Assembly (NCBI GenBank): GCA_003144275.1
Contig: NJBF01000032.1
Span: 21,142 to 53,141 of the forward strand
DNA from: Candidatus Heimdallarchaeota archaeon B3_Heim
Lineage (GTDB): Archaea; Asgardarchaeota; Heimdallarchaeia; Hodarchaeales; Hodarchaeaceae
Length of the DNA: 32,000 nucleotides
Reading direction: 5' to 3'
Positions 25,469-32,000 of this stretch are shown piece by piece; position 1 is the first letter of the stretch; the number at the start of each line of letters is the position of its first letter. Position numbers and translations under genes: made by a program. The notes under the pieces are model-generated. The model did no database searches. It was not told the origin of the DNA and worked only from the letters and a program-made list of their open reading frames with translations.

Positions 25469-28228
25469 ATGACAGTAGCTCAAAAAGATGAAAAAAACCT
25501 CTGGAAACGTTATGAATCGGCCCTTGAAGATTACAGCTTAACACGCGATCTCGATGATTTGCTCACTATATTCAAGAAAATTATTAGATCTTCATCACCT
25601 AAACCATCTATTGCGTTACTTACCAACATAGCTGATCGTCTCGTCAAATTCAAACTCTATGACGAAGCGAAACTTGTTTTTGGAATGATATTACGCAAAG
25701 AGAGCCAACATCGTGAGACATGGAAAGCCCTTTCTTCTCTCTATTTTAAATTAAAGGATAATAGCAAGGCAGAGTTTTGTTTACAGAAGTACTACTCATT
25801 AAAGGGAGGAAGTGTATTAATAAGTTCCTCTGTTAAGAACCGCTTAGCGAGTGCAGGCAAGCTTAAAACATTACCTACTAACCAACCACTAGGTCTTCAA
25901 AAAGCCAAACAGATAGAAGTTCATGCACCGAAGAGTGTATTAACTTTAGATGAATTTACGAGGCGCTTCAAATTAAAAAATGTATCTATCCCCACGATTA
26001 TAAAGAAAATCGTTCATTTTGCTCAACATCAAATAATTGATTATAGAATCTTTGATAAACAGAGCGGAGAATTTGGAGACGATCTACACTTTCTTAGTAA
26101 TGGCCAAATCATAAAATATCTAACTGATAGAAATATAAAACGGCTTTACAAATTTCAAGAAGAAGCAATCCACAAAATTTTATCGAACCAAGATGTGTGT
26201 ATTGTTGCACCAACTGGTAATGGGAAAACAGAAGCCTTTCTTCTCCCAGCTCTTTTGAAAATCAAAGATTTTGCTGGATATGGCGTTCAACTTCTTATAA
26301 TTTATCCTCAGAAGGCCTTAGCCAAAGATCAATTGAGGAAGATTACTGAAGTTGCCTCTCTCCTAAATCTTAAGGTAGAGGTGTTTGATGGAGATACATC
26401 TCATTATCGTCGTAAGAAGATTTTTTCTGATCCACCAGAAATCTTGATCACTAATCCTGATATTCTTCACTATCATCTTGGAATTGGAAAGAATTCAGGA
26501 TTTTTCCAGAATTTAATCAGTAATTTGAAAATAATCATTTTAGACGAGGTTCACACGTATTCAGGTACTTTTGGAAGCAATATACACTTCATCCTTCGTC
26601 GATTGGAACGAATATTGGATCAACAAGTGCAATTCATCACAGCTTCTGCTACGGTAGCTAATCCCCAGACTTTCACAAGTCGCCTATTAAATCGACCAAT
26701 CACCGTGATTGAGTGCAAAAATGGACGAAGAGGACGATTACATTTTTTGATGGTCGCTCCATTTGATGGTATGTCTACTTTTGATGGAATGGCTAGTTTA
26801 TTGAATTCAATTAAACAGTATGGTAAAATTTTAGCATTTCAAGATTCACATAGAAGTGCAGAATATTTATTTCAAAGATTACGGGGATCTTCCAACAGGG
26901 TAGGAATCCATAGAGCTGGTTTAACAAAGAAGATACGAGAAGAAGTTGAAACACAATTTAGAGAAGGAGAAATCGATCTTTTAATCGCCACTCCGACATT
27001 GGAGTTGGGAATTGATATTGGTGAGCTGGAAATAGTAGTGACACCTCCAATATCAGTAAATCGGGCTATTCAACGAATTGGTCGGGCTGGGAGAAAAGGA
27101 CAGGATGCTATAGCGATCATCCACCTTAATGCTGATGATCCTATAAGTAATTATTATTACAACAATCCTGAACGGTATTTTCAAGAAGTAGAAGATGTTT
27201 TTTTTGATCCAACAAATCTAAATGTCGTTGATCATCAACTATTGGCTGCAGCTCTTGATCATCCGTTAGGAATTAATGAATTCCCTGAAAATGTACCAGC
27301 AGTAGAAGAATTAGTAAATAAAAACTTCCTTCAAAGATTTAACAATGATATTTTCGTCCCAACAGAGCAAGGAATCGAAAAAGTACGGAAATATTCAATC
27401 AGAGGGACTAATCACGAAATACAAATCAAAATTCGTGGAGGTAGACTCATCGGAAAACGGACAATGCCGATTGCGATGTTTGAACTATATCCAGGTGCTT
27501 ATTATTTAGCAGGCGGTACTAGGTATCGAGTTTTTAATTACAGCTTCAACGGCTTTCGTGGATGGGCCGAACTGACAAAGCCAAAAAATGTCTGGGGACA
27601 AACTTTTCCTTTAACAAAATTGAAACCTCAGATTTTAGAGGTTCAGAAGCCGTTAACTTCAATATATGGAATAGAAGTGGGATTAGTTACAACTAAAATT
27701 CTTCAGTCTGTTATTGGATATACACTACAAACATCAGCTGGAACCGAAACAAAGAAATTACGAGATCCATTACATTATCCATCCCAATCCAGAGGGTTGT
27801 TATTTCAAATTCCATTATCTTCCCTAGATGTGCAATTAGATCAGAATAGATTTAGCAATTCCTTACATACCATCGTACATGTCCTGCTACATGCAAGTTT
27901 GCCTTTTATTGGCGGACAGATTCATGAAATTGGGGGATTAACTTTATTACCCCAAGGATATATACTTATATTTGATCAAGCAACAGGTTATGGAATATGT
28001 GAGATGTTAATGGGCCATTTATCTGAACTCTTTACCCGAGCGCGTGTAATTCTTGAATGTGAATGTCCAGATGGTTGTCCCAAATGTTGCTTTTTATCTC
28101 GCTGCAGTAAAAATAATACATCATTAGACAAAGATGGTGCCCGAAAAATTCTTGATTATATCATACAACAAGATGTAACAATTCCCCTTGGAATGGATTA
28201 TAATGAATGTAGGATTTTTATTTCTTAA
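25469..28228 (+). CDS. SF2 DEAH helicase with C-terminal DUF1998 Zn domain (MrfA/YprA/Hrq1 family) and N-terminal TPR-like region
   Basis: APTGNGKT, LDEVH, SAT, HRAGL, TPTLELGIDIG, QRIGRAGR, and C-terminal CECPDGCPKC. Confidence 0.9.
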   Translation: MTVAQKDEKNLWKRYESALEDYSLTRDLDDLLTIFKKIIRSSSPKPSIALLTNIADRLVKFKLYDEAKLVFGMILRKESQHRETWKALSSLYFKLKDNSKAEFCLQKYYSLKGGSVLISSSVKNRLASAGKLKTLPTNQPLGLQKAKQIEVHAPKSVLTLDEFTRRFKLKNVSIPTIIKKIVHFAQHQIIDYRIFDKQSGEFGDDLHFLSNGQIIKYLTDRNIKRLYKFQEEAIHKILSNQDVCIVAPTGNGKTEAFLLPALLKIKDFAGYGVQLLIIYPQKALAKDQLRKITEVASLLNLKVEVFDGDTSHYRRKKIFSDPPEILITNPDILHYHLGIGKNSGFFQNLISNLKIIILDEVHTYSGTFGSNIHFILRRLERILDQQVQFITASATVANPQTFTSRLLNRPITVIECKNGRRGRLHFLMVAPFDGMSTFDGMASLLNSIKQYGKILAFQDSHRSAEYLFQRLRGSSNRVGIHRAGLTKKIREEVETQFREGEIDLLIATPTLELGIDIGELEIVVTPPISVNRAIQRIGRAGRKGQDAIAIIHLNADDPISNYYYNNPERYFQEVEDVFFDPTNLNVVDHQLLAAALDHPLGINEFPENVPAVEELVNKNFLQRFNNDIFVPTEQGIEKVRKYSIRGTNHEIQIKIRGGRLIGKRTMPIAMFELYPGAYYLAGGTRYRVFNYSFNGFRGWAELTKPKNVWGQTFPLTKLKPQILEVQKPLTSIYGIEVGLVTTKILQSVIGYTLQTSAGTETKKLRDPLHYPSQSRGLLFQIPLSSLDVQLDQNRFSNSLHTIVHVLLHASLPFIGGQIHEIGGLTLLPQGYILIFDQATGYGICEMLMGHLSELFTRARVILECECPDGCPKCCFLSRCSKNNTSLDKDGARKILDYIIQQDVTIPLGMDYNECRIFIS

Positions 28229-28345: not shown

Positions 28346-29539
28346 ATGGATTCTAAAATGATAAATAGAAGCGTTTTAACCACTATTATCGGATTTTTAT
28401 TTGGGTACTTCCTGTACACTGTTATTGATTCTACTTCACTGTTCATCTTTCTTTTTGGAGGAGTGGGGTACTTCATTGGTTTGATACTTGATAATGCCGA
28501 TAGAAGACTCCAACTCGAGAATGTTCAGAATATTTCTTCAAGTCACAAGGTTTATTATTCTGATATCCTTCCAGAAGCTGTCATATTATATTCTATGCTT
28601 GATAATATAACGATTGTCTTAATTGATTATAAAATTGAGGCAAAACCTGAAGATTACCGGCTATCAGTTCTTAAGAACCTTCAAGAGTTTGATTTTCGAG
28701 TAACAGAAGATTCTCTTAAGACAATTTTCTCCTTGACCATTGAATTTCCGGAATTTAATTATCCCTCCATAAGTAATTCCGAAAAAGAACTGAAAAAATT
28801 CTTCTATGATATTAAGGAGCAATGCATTGATTTTCAAGGGGCTGTACAAAAGATAATTCCTGGATTAGTTCTTAGTACTATCTATAAACCAGATATATTT
28901 GGTGATCAGAATATATATAGCCATGAGACTCATAACCGTTCTGATTCAATGAAACCCCCAGATTTTAATAGCGGAGAGCGAAGCTCTTCTTCGCTTTCTG
29001 AGAAAGTAGATAATATTAATCCTAGTATTCCAAAAATCTCAACATCTAACTTGGAAATTCCAGAATTACAAACTGAAAATGAGGAGAAAATAATGTCTGA
29101 TCTTCTTGGGAATACTTCGAAACCCAAATTAGATTCAAAATCTCTTACCAAGTCGCTAGATGAAAAATTTGAATCTTCTATGCAGAATCGGCCTAAAATA
29201 TTAACTGCGGACAAAATTAAGGAAATTAGCAATAATTTATTCGCTTTCCAAGATAAGAAGGATGATGATTTTCCTGGTTCCGAAAAACCTGAAACTGACA
29301 TGAAACCTGAGATAATGACTTCAGTGGAAGCAGACTCAACAGGAAGATTACATGATCCTGGGAAGGATGAGGAGGGCACTTATGAACTTGTAGAAGAAAC
29401 ATTGGATGAAAAGGAAAGACCTCTATTAGCAAAACTCGCTGAACAACTTTATGATGAAAAAGAGCGACGAAGTAGTAATTCAGATCCTGAAGTGGATGAA
29501 GATTTTAGACCAAAAGAGTCCTCTAAACAAGAAATTTAG
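28346..29539 (+). CDS. Hypothetical membrane-anchored protein with acidic, probably disordered C-terminus
   Basis: Two N-terminal Gly-rich TM helices, an alpha/beta middle region and ~200 aa rich in S/E/D/K/P. Confidence 0.75.
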   Translation: MDSKMINRSVLTTIIGFLFGYFLYTVIDSTSLFIFLFGGVGYFIGLILDNADRRLQLENVQNISSSHKVYYSDILPEAVILYSMLDNITIVLIDYKIEAKPEDYRLSVLKNLQEFDFRVTEDSLKTIFSLTIEFPEFNYPSISNSEKELKKFFYDIKEQCIDFQGAVQKIIPGLVLSTIYKPDIFGDQNIYSHETHNRSDSMKPPDFNSGERSSSSLSEKVDNINPSIPKISTSNLEIPELQTENEEKIMSDLLGNTSKPKLDSKSLTKSLDEKFESSMQNRPKILTADKIKEISNNLFAFQDKKDDDFPGSEKPETDMKPEIMTSVEADSTGRLHDPGKDEEGTYELVEETLDEKERPLLAKLAEQLYDEKERRSSNSDPEVDEDFRPKESSKQEI

Positions 29540-29706: not shown

Positions 29707-30222
29707 TCAGCTTATTAACTGCCGAGGGCGATTCCATAAAGGAGTAGTTGAAAAAGGAATTTTATATCGTTGATTCATGGAATTTAGAATCTCTTTTCTG
29801 ACTTCCGAATTTAAATTCTGTTGAATTGAAGGGACCCGATTTCTTATTTTTCCTTCATTTGATATTGAAATGATTCCAATCCCGATTTCTCTTGCCCAAA
29901 GGAGTTGTTCTTCCAAAGTATCGTTGTTTAGCAACTCAAATTGTTCATCAGGACATAATAAGTAACAATAATCACAAAATTGGCTATAAATTGATGGATG
30001 ATTGATATGAATCTGAGTCTCGGCCTCGAAGAAGTGAATAGAACTATCTAGTTGACAAATACCTGCTAAATCAATCCGTATTTGCTTCTGACCCCCCTCA
30101 AGAAATTCAGATATTTGAAAATGGTCATTACTCCCTATTTGTAGCTCAGAATACGTCTGGAATTGTAGTTGATTTCTTAGGAATAGTTCTAACTGGTTGA
30201 CTAGCTGATTTTCTGTTAACAT
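29707..30222 (-). CDS. PD-(D/E)xK nuclease-fold protein, MmcB-like
   Basis: SE...RIDL...HFFEAE...YSQFCDYCY...GIGII pattern. ATG 30222 preferred over TTG 30231. Confidence 0.55.
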   Translation of the reverse strand: MLTENQLVNQLELFLRNQLQFQTYSELQIGSNDHFQISEFLEGGQKQIRIDLAGICQLDSSIHFFEAETQIHINHPSIYSQFCDYCYLLCPDEQFELLNNDTLEEQLLWAREIGIGIISISNEGKIRNRVPSIQQNLNSEVRKEILNSMNQRYKIPFSTTPLWNRPRQLIS

Positions 30223-30352
30223 CTTTCTCAATAATGATTGAGATTTTCATTTTTAAACTTAAAAATTGAGGAGATCAAATTTTGGATATTTAAGTCACAT
30301 TCACCATTACTAGATGTAAACATTCAGAACAGAATATTCAGGTGAGTCGCAA

Positions 30353-30580
30353 GTGACAAGTCAACCAATACTCCAACCGAAAGGTCTTCCCTTTCTGGAT
30401 GAAGTCTTTGTAAATAGTCCCCTTTGTCAAATATGTGAGTTTGCTAACTGGGGAATAGGAGGAATTTGTTCATTATTGTTGAACAGGCGTATACCATCCG
30501 TTTTAGTAATACAAGAAGCGCAAGTGATCTCTTGTAGCGCTCATCGCAACTGGGTTGAGCATTTAGATTTAAATGAATAA
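30353..30580 (+). CDS. Small putative Zn-binding protein (C25-x2-C28, C39, C61-x2-H64)
   Basis: AGGTGA RBS 7 nt before the GTG start; the stop overlaps the next ATG (30573). Confidence 0.6.
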   Translation: MTSQPILQPKGLPFLDEVFVNSPLCQICEFANWGIGGICSLLLNRRIPSVLVIQEAQVISCSAHRNWVEHLDLNE

Positions 30581-31889
30581 TCAAAAAAGGAATTATAACT
30601 CAATTAAGAACTGGATGGAACCAACTTTGAGCCTAACGAGGAGTGGTAATAAAATTTCTCATAAGCTTAAGTTTACTCCTTCACTGGATGAACAGATATT
30701 ACTAGCTAAAATTCAAAGACAGAATTGCTTAATTCAGTATCGGCTCGAAGAGAAGCTTAATCGTATTCTGTCCTTGCTTATCAGTCTACATATCTCTAGA
30801 GAAAAAACACATGAATCCATTCCACGAGTACTCATTCTTACTAAAAGACAAATTCAGGATATCTTCAGAGCAGGGATCCAGGATACCTTAAATCAGATTA
30901 TAACGATCCATAACGGCCTTATACTCCCCCAAGCTCGAAAACTGGATTATAGTCGGTTTAGCATAATTCTCTCGACCCCTAAAACGGTGAAAAATGATTT
31001 TAAGGAAGATTTCTTTGTAAAAGATCACTTTTCACTAATAGTGATTGATTATGCGGAAATGGGGGTATCCTCATCGACTTTACGATTTATTATCAAAAAA
31101 TTAAAGCCGAACCAAGTAGTTGGTCTATCGAGAGAGAAAAATACAATAAAGCTTGGACAAGCTTGTGTAAACCTAGAGCTCACGGAATTTGTCAATATCG
31201 ATGGAAATGCTAGGAGAGAACGGTCTAACATCCAATATTATTCACTTCCTTTACCTAAAGAATATTTCTTTGTGCTAGATATTCTTAATCAACTAAAAAA
31301 AAATAGATTAATACAACTTGAAAAGTTAGGGTTTGGAGTTACTGTGAAAAGCACTCCTCAAGAGGTAGCGGCAATCCATACTAGTTTGTTGAATGAAAAG
31401 AACCGAAAACTCTTAGTAAAAACAGCGAATTTACAACGAATAATGACAATGCAACGAATGGTAATCTCTCAAGGTTTTCCTGCTCTCATATCTTATTTTG
31501 ATGATATATGTCACCGTCTAAATGATAATGATTATGTCATAGGTAGAAAAGCTTTAGTTCAGTTTTTAGGAAATCCGATCATCAATAAACTCAATGAATA
31601 TGTTCGCTTATTTAGTGAGTTAGTTCATCCGAAATTTCGACAGGTTTTGAAATTACTGGAGGACTATGGATCATCTGTTTCCCTAGTAACCAATAATCGA
31701 TACAATGCAAAGTTTCTCCAGGAAAAGCTGAATGAAAAAGGAGTATCCACGATTAATATCACCCAACCGATATCTTCTCTAAAACGAATTCAGCTAGAAA
31801 AGAAACTCTTTGCTTTCAGTGGAAAGAAAACTCGAGTATGCATAACAAATACTGCTAATGAACTTATAGCTAATCTAGCATGGTTTTAA
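30573..31889 (+). CDS. Hef/FANCM-like helicase-fold protein with degenerate motifs, ending at about motif V
   Basis: Collinear with the Hef consensus as recalled (QNCLI, RVLIL, IILSTPKTVKND, SLIVID, VVGLS, LPKEY, QGFPALISY, HPKF, TNNRYNA, RVCIT), but lacking GKT, DEAH and motif VI. Confidence 0.72.
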   Translation: MNNQKRNYNSIKNWMEPTLSLTRSGNKISHKLKFTPSLDEQILLAKIQRQNCLIQYRLEEKLNRILSLLISLHISREKTHESIPRVLILTKRQIQDIFRAGIQDTLNQIITIHNGLILPQARKLDYSRFSIILSTPKTVKNDFKEDFFVKDHFSLIVIDYAEMGVSSSTLRFIIKKLKPNQVVGLSREKNTIKLGQACVNLELTEFVNIDGNARRERSNIQYYSLPLPKEYFFVLDILNQLKKNRLIQLEKLGFGVTVKSTPQEVAAIHTSLLNEKNRKLLVKTANLQRIMTMQRMVISQGFPALISYFDDICHRLNDNDYVIGRKALVQFLGNPIINKLNEYVRLFSELVHPKFRQVLKLLEDYGSSVSLVTNNRYNAKFLQEKLNEKGVSTINITQPISSLKRIQLEKKLFAFSGKKTRVCITNTANELIANLAWF

Positions 31890-32000
31890 CATAAAGATCG
31901 GAGAAACGTCTTTCTGGAGTGAAAACGCTTCTTTGGACTATTAAAGCACCGTTGGGCACGGACTTCATCATATTGATACCGATAAAGAGCGATGAGTTGG

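Follow-up and report, generated by a model that had tools for sequence, protein, structure and literature searches.

A Hef-like pseudo-helicase and its four-cysteine partner in Hodarchaeales: a candidate non-catalytic module for active repair enzymes

Introduction

Close to the end of a 32,000-nucleotide stretch of DNA from Candidatus Heimdallarchaeota archaeon B3_Heim (contig C70:21142-53141; referred to throughout as the window), two adjoining genes encode a small four-cysteine (Cys4) protein and a paralogue of the archaeal helicase Hef in which the ATPase motifs have been replaced. We favour, with some reserve, the reading that this lineage-specific dead Hef paralogue and its co-transcribed Cys4 protein form a non-catalytic module that serves as an adaptor or regulator for active repair enzymes. 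The reading draws together a Hef fold that has neither ATPase nor nuclease, purifying selection on the gene, an obligate small partner and a neighbourhood of repair genes. The source names of homologues place the organism in the Hodarchaeales, or Heimdall group, of the Asgard archaea, and Hodarchaeales is the archaeal order often placed closest to eukaryotes. The source assembly is a bin of 103 contigs that is 94% complete, and base 32000 of the window coincides with the end of its contig. No published description of a dead-Hef/Cys4 pair was found in the searchable literature.

A Hef fold without ATPase motifs

Both the sequence of the larger of the two open reading frames (ORFs; Table 1) and, as judged from a model of a family member, its fold resemble those of Hef. 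As a single query against the PDB, the pseudo-helicase matches the helicase domain of P. furiosus Hef (1wp9) over residues 35-391 at an E value of 3.5e-5, and a profile of its family reaches the same structure at 4.7e-13. The family profile finds no XPF, FANCM, MUS81 or other helicase in the PDB at E values up to 0.1, and reaches no XPF chain there at E values up to 1. Among NCBIfam models, that of Hef (NF010337) is the sole match of the pseudo-helicase, with 65 bits (64.9) against a cut-off of 610; the family members P0003 and P0014 likewise score below the cut-off, with 73.1 and 74.8 bits, as does the intact helicase-only Hef of the same genome with 484.5 bits. Searching Pfam with the pseudo-helicase returns nothing beyond a sub-threshold match to ResIII.

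The structural comparison proposed in the original prediction was made with an AF2 model of the full-length family member P0014 (predicted local distance difference test, pLDDT, 81), and it recovers the Hef fold. The model aligns to 1wp9 at a Foldseek E value of 1e-22, and 1wp9 is also its best match by VIA (Z 25.9 over 436 residues), followed by FANCM (Z 20.9) and by RIG-I, MDA5 and Dicer (Z of about 20). In Foldseek, human XPF chains align along the whole long-form model (680-721 columns). The family has a superfamily 2 (SF2) core of two RecA-like domains together with the Hef-type helical insertion domain, which both the alignment and the fold match to 1wp9 show to be retained, as had been proposed.

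Alignment of 16 family members to the intact Hef of the same genome bears out the earlier reading that the Walker A, DEAH, TAS and motif V positions are all replaced. In the protein encoded in the window, motif I (LPTGLGKTI in the intact Hef) reads YRLEEKLNR, motif II (ID--EVH) reads IDYAEMG, motif III (GFTATPG) reads GLSRE, and motif V (STSVGEEGLD) reads TNTANE--LIA. Motif VI (QRRGRGRK) is missing from the window copy and corresponds in orthologues to LNxLxVxIP, which has no arginine motif. None of the 16 aligned members (43-74% identity) keeps motif I, II, III, V or VI, each of which has been replaced. Motif Ic (STPKTVKND), an HPK landmark and about 50 further columns are invariant across the aligned family. 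The resemblance within the family is far beyond chance, since the same replacements are found in 29 homologues retrieved by database search at E values below 1e-54, all of them from Asgard bins. The RecA1-like domain carries a net charge of +3 to +12 in 24 of 24 members, which lends weak support to nucleic-acid binding.

Age, selection and distribution

Loss of the ATPase in this family is ancient and selected, because homologues at 43% identity are equally dead, the ratio of nonsynonymous to synonymous divergence (omega, or dN/dS) is about 0.09-0.2, and 20 of the 21 genomes sampled from one GTDB family (f1) carry the gene, the window's own genome not being counted. The pseudo-helicase was found in none of 62 genomes from six other families of the class (E values up to 1e-20). 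In 18 of the 20 other genomes that carry it the reading frame is open over 483-662 aa, and the remaining two consist of a fragment at a contig end and one 602-aa frame. Between the window and the closest orthologous locus (L007), dN is 0.20 and dS 2.35, giving an omega of about 0.09, and omega ranges from 0.09 to 0.20 across the 12 closest pairs (Nei-Gojobori method in both cases); these values are approximate because dS is near saturation, though they lie clearly far under 1. The proposal that long-term selection rather than recent decay accounts for the open frame thus agrees with what its orthologues show, both in their degenerate motifs and in omega.

The relationship of the pseudo-Hefs to active Hefs was examined with FastTree in an unrooted tree of the family and 30 Asgard Hefs. 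All the pseudo-Hefs group together, and a long stem connects their clade to the Asgard Hefs. The tree, a single unrooted topology in which three clades meet at one node, cannot polarise the origin of the family. An independent, lineage-specific origin is favoured over ancestry to the eukaryotic proteins, since sequence affinity is to archaeal Hef only and the range of the family is a single family-level lineage.

Long forms with an inactive nuclease domain

The more distant members of the family (41-50% identity, 606-654 aa) carry an additional C-terminal domain with an ERCC4 fold. Modelled alone (pLDDT 90), the domain matches only XPF/MUS81-family nuclease folds in Foldseek, with template modelling (TM) scores of 0.6-0.7. 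Its top match is the FANCM pseudo-nuclease (4m6w_A, E value 7e-5), and the other matches are FAAP24, the Hef nuclease (1j24), the A. pernix XPF (ApeXPF), ERCC1, EME1 and Zip2-Spo16. Only P23 and T59 are invariant in the domain, which has no conserved D, E or K column, is neutral or acidic in charge, and lacks the nuclease residues GDXnERKX3D. The long forms are also without HhH2, because the proteins end directly after the ERCC4-fold domain.

Proteins of the clade to which the window belongs end after the helicase-like core (467-484 aa). The statement in the original prediction that there is no ERCC4 domain is therefore correct for this clade and fails for the older members, in which an ERCC4-fold pseudo-nuclease is present. 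The long forms are doubly dead Hefs and the window's clade is without the second half. The long architecture is probably ancestral, because the short forms, those of the window's clade among them, are nested inside the pseudo-Hef clade of the tree. Two further short forms, P0009 (496 aa) and P0013 (483 aa), fall inside the long-form clade and lie on contigs of 2.5 and 5 kb; the pseudo-nuclease domain may have been lost a second time here, or the gene calls may be truncated.

The four-cysteine partner

The gene directly upstream of the pseudo-helicase had been described as a Cys/His protein, and it proves to be a real and highly conserved partner gene. It has 53 homologues of 72-153 aa, all from Hodarchaeales/Heimdall-type bins. 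In family f1 the two genes are adjacent and co-oriented, with the small one directly 5' of the pseudo-helicase, in 20 of 20 genomes; a further genome of this family (G304), in which the helicase is present, was outside the sample searched for the small gene. The protein has the pattern C25-x2-C28-x10-C39-x21-C61-x2-H64, in which C25, C28, C39 and C61 are invariant and H64 is near-invariant, being replaced by Q in 2 of 24 sequences. Its core, LPFLDE[VI]F.NSPLCQICE[FY]A...GG[IV]CSLLLNRR.P...[IV]SCSAHRNW, is better conserved than the helicase, and omega of the small gene is about 0.09-0.2.

Outside the lineage the small protein has no evident relatives. Searches of 281 genomes from 29 other Asgard families did not find it. 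When 1.84 billion representatives were searched exhaustively with a profile, only its own family was returned, as seven clusters at E values up to 1e-10. The best matches outside the family are weak, multi-stretch alignments to Cys-rich proteins (E values of 4e-6 to 4e-4). No Pfam, NCBIfam, PADLOC or PDB family is matched above threshold, and the ESM Atlas features yield none either; the best zinc-finger match, to zf-CCCH_6, is sub-threshold at an E value of 0.05. For the two metal-binding knuckles expected of small zinc-ribbon or treble-clef proteins, the conserved candidates are C25-x2-C28 and C61-x2-H64. The CxxC...C...CxxH pattern suggests that the small protein is probably metal-binding, and either Zn or an Fe-S cluster would be compatible with it. 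A complex prediction based on alignments of the pseudo-helicase P0007 and its own small protein gave 0.00 twice, a result that speaks neither for nor against binding.

The two genes are closely spaced. Both ORFs of the original prediction and the AGGTGA that precedes the small gene stand, and AGGTGA also occurs at the equivalent place in L007. The 8-nt overlap between the ORFs (ATGAATAA) holds for the first ATG of the pseudo-helicase only; its closest orthologues have starts that line up with M15 (30615), an alternative start. With ORFs called naively from the first start, the gap or overlap between the two genes is 10 nt or less in 8 of 13 other loci, and tight spacing is thus the rule in most loci of the family despite the ambiguity of the starts.

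A copy truncated by an IS-type repeat

The original prediction noted that the ORF stops before motif VI. That stop is not native and is caused by an insertion sequence (IS)-type repeat or an assembly break, as the gene runs into the repeat and the contig ends there. The ORF finishes '...ANLA-WF-stop' (31880-31889), and same-clade orthologues (67-74% identity, 467-484 aa) complete the second RecA-like domain with about 37 residues more after '...IANLA', in the form 'SIIIAYDVNAD...QTxEEARFFxLK'. The missing residues are the end of that domain and include invariant Y, D, A, Q, T, R and F columns. When the closest orthologue's tail was used to search the assembly, no credible match emerged (best E value 2.1). 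Upstream of the repeat junction the ORF contains no frameshift or internal stop. The window copy is thus 3'-truncated by the repeat and may be disrupted in this strain.

The repeat occurs in at least three places in the genome, namely at the end of the window, at the end of contig C20 and on contig C82 (L005:385-1608). Window positions 31872-31998 are 100% identical to the last 127 nt of C20, and the repeat shares 71% identity with the 3' end of a DDE-transposase gene on C82 that is split into ORFs of 203 and 189 aa. Matches to the Pfam families DDE_5 and DDE_Tnp_1 are below their cut-offs.

Active Hef paralogues in the same genome

A search for an intact Hef elsewhere in the genome had been suggested, and one was found. 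It is a helicase-only protein of 521 aa that retains PTGLGKT, DEVH and QRRGRGRK (contig C96; L002:1081-2646, minus strand). A separate Hef/XPF-type nuclease of 245 aa with the residues ADY...ERK is encoded on another contig (C4; L009:1459-2196, plus strand), and it scores 134 bits against the nuclease part of Hef and 105 bits against archaeal Xpf. Active Hef is thus split into two unlinked genes in this genome; in related genomes it is fused (751-759 aa).

Gene neighbourhood and promoter region

Across 14 orthologous loci the gene order is a 166-aa gene (minus strand), a 174-aa gene (minus strand), the small protein (plus strand), the pseudo-Hef (plus strand) and XPD (minus strand). XPD, recognised by its DEAD_2 and Helicase_C_2 domains, is convergent and downstream in 8 of the 14 loci, and the 174-aa MmcB-like gene is divergent and upstream in 10 of the 14. 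A search of the window's own assembly with the XPD of L007 as query found no XPD; the assembly is incomplete, and absence of the gene is not implied.

In the 174-aa protein D54, E69, E71 and C86-x2-C89-x3-C93 are invariant. Its ESM Atlas model matches MmcB-like clusters with TM scores of 0.68-0.70, and profile searches of the PDB and Pfam place it in no sequence-level family (PF06319 was unmatched). The assignment as MmcB-like is a lead only; the protein might be a nuclease that contains a metal or Fe-S site.

The intergenic region between the 174-aa gene and the pair contains a candidate promoter with a B recognition element (BRE) and a TATA box. Across seven orthologous loci, no block of the divergent intergenic region is better conserved than this box (consensus TTTCGGATATTTAAGC), which may act as the promoter of the pair. 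More broadly, the region (30232-30352) and its orthologues hold two conserved AT-rich boxes, one TTTTATATTC-like and one GATATTTAAGC-like, which may serve the 174-aa gene and the pair as archaeal promoters placed back to back.

Two further genes precede this region on the plus strand. One encodes an intact DECH/Lhr-like helicase (TIGR03817, 292 bits), which also stands upstream of the pair in L007, where the ortholog carries an MZB domain. The other encodes a protein with a hydrophobic segment at its N-terminus and a long low-complexity tail that is acidic and rich in Ser and Lys; this protein matches no family and has a counterpart of 50% identity at the same position in L007.

Table 1. Features of the dead-Hef/Cys4 locus and its surroundings (window coordinates)
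Feature	Position	Strand	Remarks
DECH/Lhr-like helicase	25469-28228	+	919 aa; intact; upstream of the pair
Protein with low-complexity tail	28346-29539	+	397 aa
174-aa neighbour, MmcB-like (PD-(D/E)xK-type) predicted fold	29707-30231	-	Conserved position, divergent transcription
Candidate BRE/TATA promoter of the two-gene operon (TTTTGGATATTTAAGTC)	30280-30296	+	About 57 nt 5' of the GTG
Shine-Dalgarno-like AGGTGA	30340-30345	+	7 nt 5' of the GTG start; read directly from the sequence
Small four-cysteine protein ORF (P0002)	30353-30580	+	GTG start, 75 aa
Hef-like pseudo-helicase ORF (P0001)	30573-31889	+	ATG start, 438 aa; native sequence until about 31872-31880
End of IS-type repeat	31872-32000	-	Encodes the C-terminus of a DDE transposase-like protein; truncates the pseudo-helicase gene

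Possible function of the pair

If the pair acts as a non-catalytic module, the basic helicase-like core would hold DNA, another nucleic-acid structure or a partner protein without translocating, and the Cys4 protein would serve as a subunit with a structural or bridging role. Candidate clients of such an adaptor or regulator would be the XPD helicase and the MmcB-like nuclease candidate that adjoin the pair in related genomes; alternatively, they may be the intact Hef helicase and the Hef/XPF nuclease that are encoded elsewhere in this genome. An active ERCC4 nuclease could be the pairing partner of the pseudo-nuclease domain in the long forms. A more specific version, to which we are drawn only tentatively and which we consider doubtful as it stands, is that the Cys4 protein and the dead Hef make up an obligate, non-catalytic heterodimer that would recognise stalled forks or crosslinked, bubble-type DNA and would load or license XPD, the MmcB-like nuclease and the active Hef/XPF nuclease.

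Several observations weigh against a role as an adaptor for repair enzymes. RNA could be the ligand, since two RNA sensors, RIG-I and Dicer, have Hef-like folds as well. The connection with XPD comes from related genomes, because XPD was not found in this assembly, and gene neighbourhood alone is weak evidence for a common pathway. In the window copy itself about 37 conserved residues are missing from the C-terminus, and the gene may not function in this strain.

Alternative explanations

The loss of every catalytic motif, together with the truncation of the window copy at its 3' end, might be expected of a recently decayed Hef pseudogene whose frame has stayed open by luck. Such an origin is very unlikely, given that 16 homologues, some with as little as 43% identity, carry the same replacements and share about 50 invariant columns, that omega is about 0.09-0.2 and frames are open in other genomes, and that an intact Hef coexists; for the family as a whole, the shared dead motifs, the invariant columns and omega lead to its rejection, and if anything here is recent damage, it is the truncation in this strain. 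That truncation gives real weight to a narrower possibility, namely that the family is sound and the window copy has been disrupted by IS insertion and is non-functional in this organism. The junction of the gene with the repeat at about 31872-31880, the lost invariant columns, and the failure to find either the gene tail or the downstream XPD in the assembly all point this way. Against this, the contig ends in a repeat within a 94%-complete bin, so that the remainder may lie on a contig left out of the bin; an intact allele may coexist in a mixed population; and the rest of the ORF is free of frameshifts and stops. We regard disruption in this organism as a serious prospect that falls somewhat short of an even chance.

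Two other explanations accept the family as functional and assign it a different descent or a different task. The placement in Hodarchaeales by source names, the alignment of human XPF over the whole long-form model (680-721 columns), and the position of the FANCM pseudo-nuclease as best Foldseek match of the C-terminal domain would all be in keeping with the view that eukaryotic XPF owes its inactive helicase-like module, or FANCM/FAAP24 their pseudo-nuclease, to direct descent from this archaeal family. Such an ancestry is nonetheless highly improbable: the family profile finds only P. furiosus Hef in the PDB and not XPF, FANCM or MUS81, VIA places Hef 5 Z units above FANCM, and the family has neither HhH2 nor an active nuclease. 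It was found in one GTDB family only and in none of the other Hodarchaeales/Heimdall-type families searched, and its single, long-stemmed clade next to the Asgard Hefs fits a lineage-specific duplication. A RIG-I/Dicer-like sensor without ATPase, acting in anti-virus defence or RNA sensing and not in DNA repair, is suggested by the use of Hef-like helicase folds for RNA sensing (RIG-I, MDA5 and Dicer, Z of about 20) and by the neighbouring 919-aa helicase, which matches models of the defence-system helicases BrxHI and DruE. Hef is closest both by sequence and by structure, however, no PADLOC defence-system match was obtained for the pseudo-helicase, the small protein or the 174-aa neighbour, and the synteny is conserved in 20 of 21 genomes of the lineage, unlike that of a patchy defence island; a role in defence or RNA sensing is accordingly rated as unlikely.

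Comparison with known systems and significance

Eukaryotic genome maintenance makes use of half-dead descendants of Hef, in the form of the helicase module of XPF and the nuclease modules of FANCM, ERCC1 and FAAP24. With regard to archaeal Hef itself (1wp9 for the helicase, 1j22/1j24 for the nuclease), the family shares the two RecA-like domains with their helical insertion, motif Ic (TPxT..ND) and the HPK landmark, and its long forms carry the ERCC4-fold domain at the C-terminus, in the order found in Hef. Unlike archaeal Hef, the family lacks motifs I, II, III, V and VI, the GDXnERKX3D residues and HhH2, and is always paired with the small Cys4 protein. Eukaryotic XPF (6sxa, 6sxb, 9qec) has likewise retained a Hef-derived helicase fold without ATPase motifs, and this inactive module is used for interactions with proteins and DNA. 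The parallel is functional only. No sequence-level affinity between the family and XPF was detected when the family profile was run against the PDB, and XPF has an active nuclease, HhH2 and the partner ERCC1, whereas the family has neither the nuclease nor HhH2 and its partner is an unrelated 75-aa Cys4 protein.

The ERCC4 fold without catalytic residues in the long forms resembles that of FANCM-FAAP24 and ERCC1 (4m6w, 4bxo, 9hjo, 2a1i; E value 7e-5, TM scores of 0.63-0.69). In FANCM, FAAP24 and ERCC1 the pseudo-nucleases are dimerisation or DNA-binding modules; such a domain is absent from the protein encoded in the window. FANCM differs from the family in having an active translocase, and FAAP24 and ERCC1 differ in having HhH2. 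The dead Hef and its partner would play a part comparable to that of the inactive helicase module in XPF or of the inactive nuclease modules in ERCC1, FAAP24 and FANCM, but the pseudo-Hef family does not belong to any of these families.

An Asgard lineage has made the move from enzyme to pseudo-enzyme independently and more radically, since the long forms have lost activity in both halves of the protein. All that remains in the window's clade is the dead helicase, long retained together with a dedicated small cysteine protein, and it persists beside a working Hef, an XPF-type nuclease and, in relatives, XPD. The system provides a small prokaryotic setting in which to ask what a helicase fold does once ATP hydrolysis has been lost. 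If the heterodimer proposed above is real, it would be an independent archaeal counterpart of the eukaryotic pseudo-enzyme nuclease complexes XPF-ERCC1 and FANCM-FAAP24.

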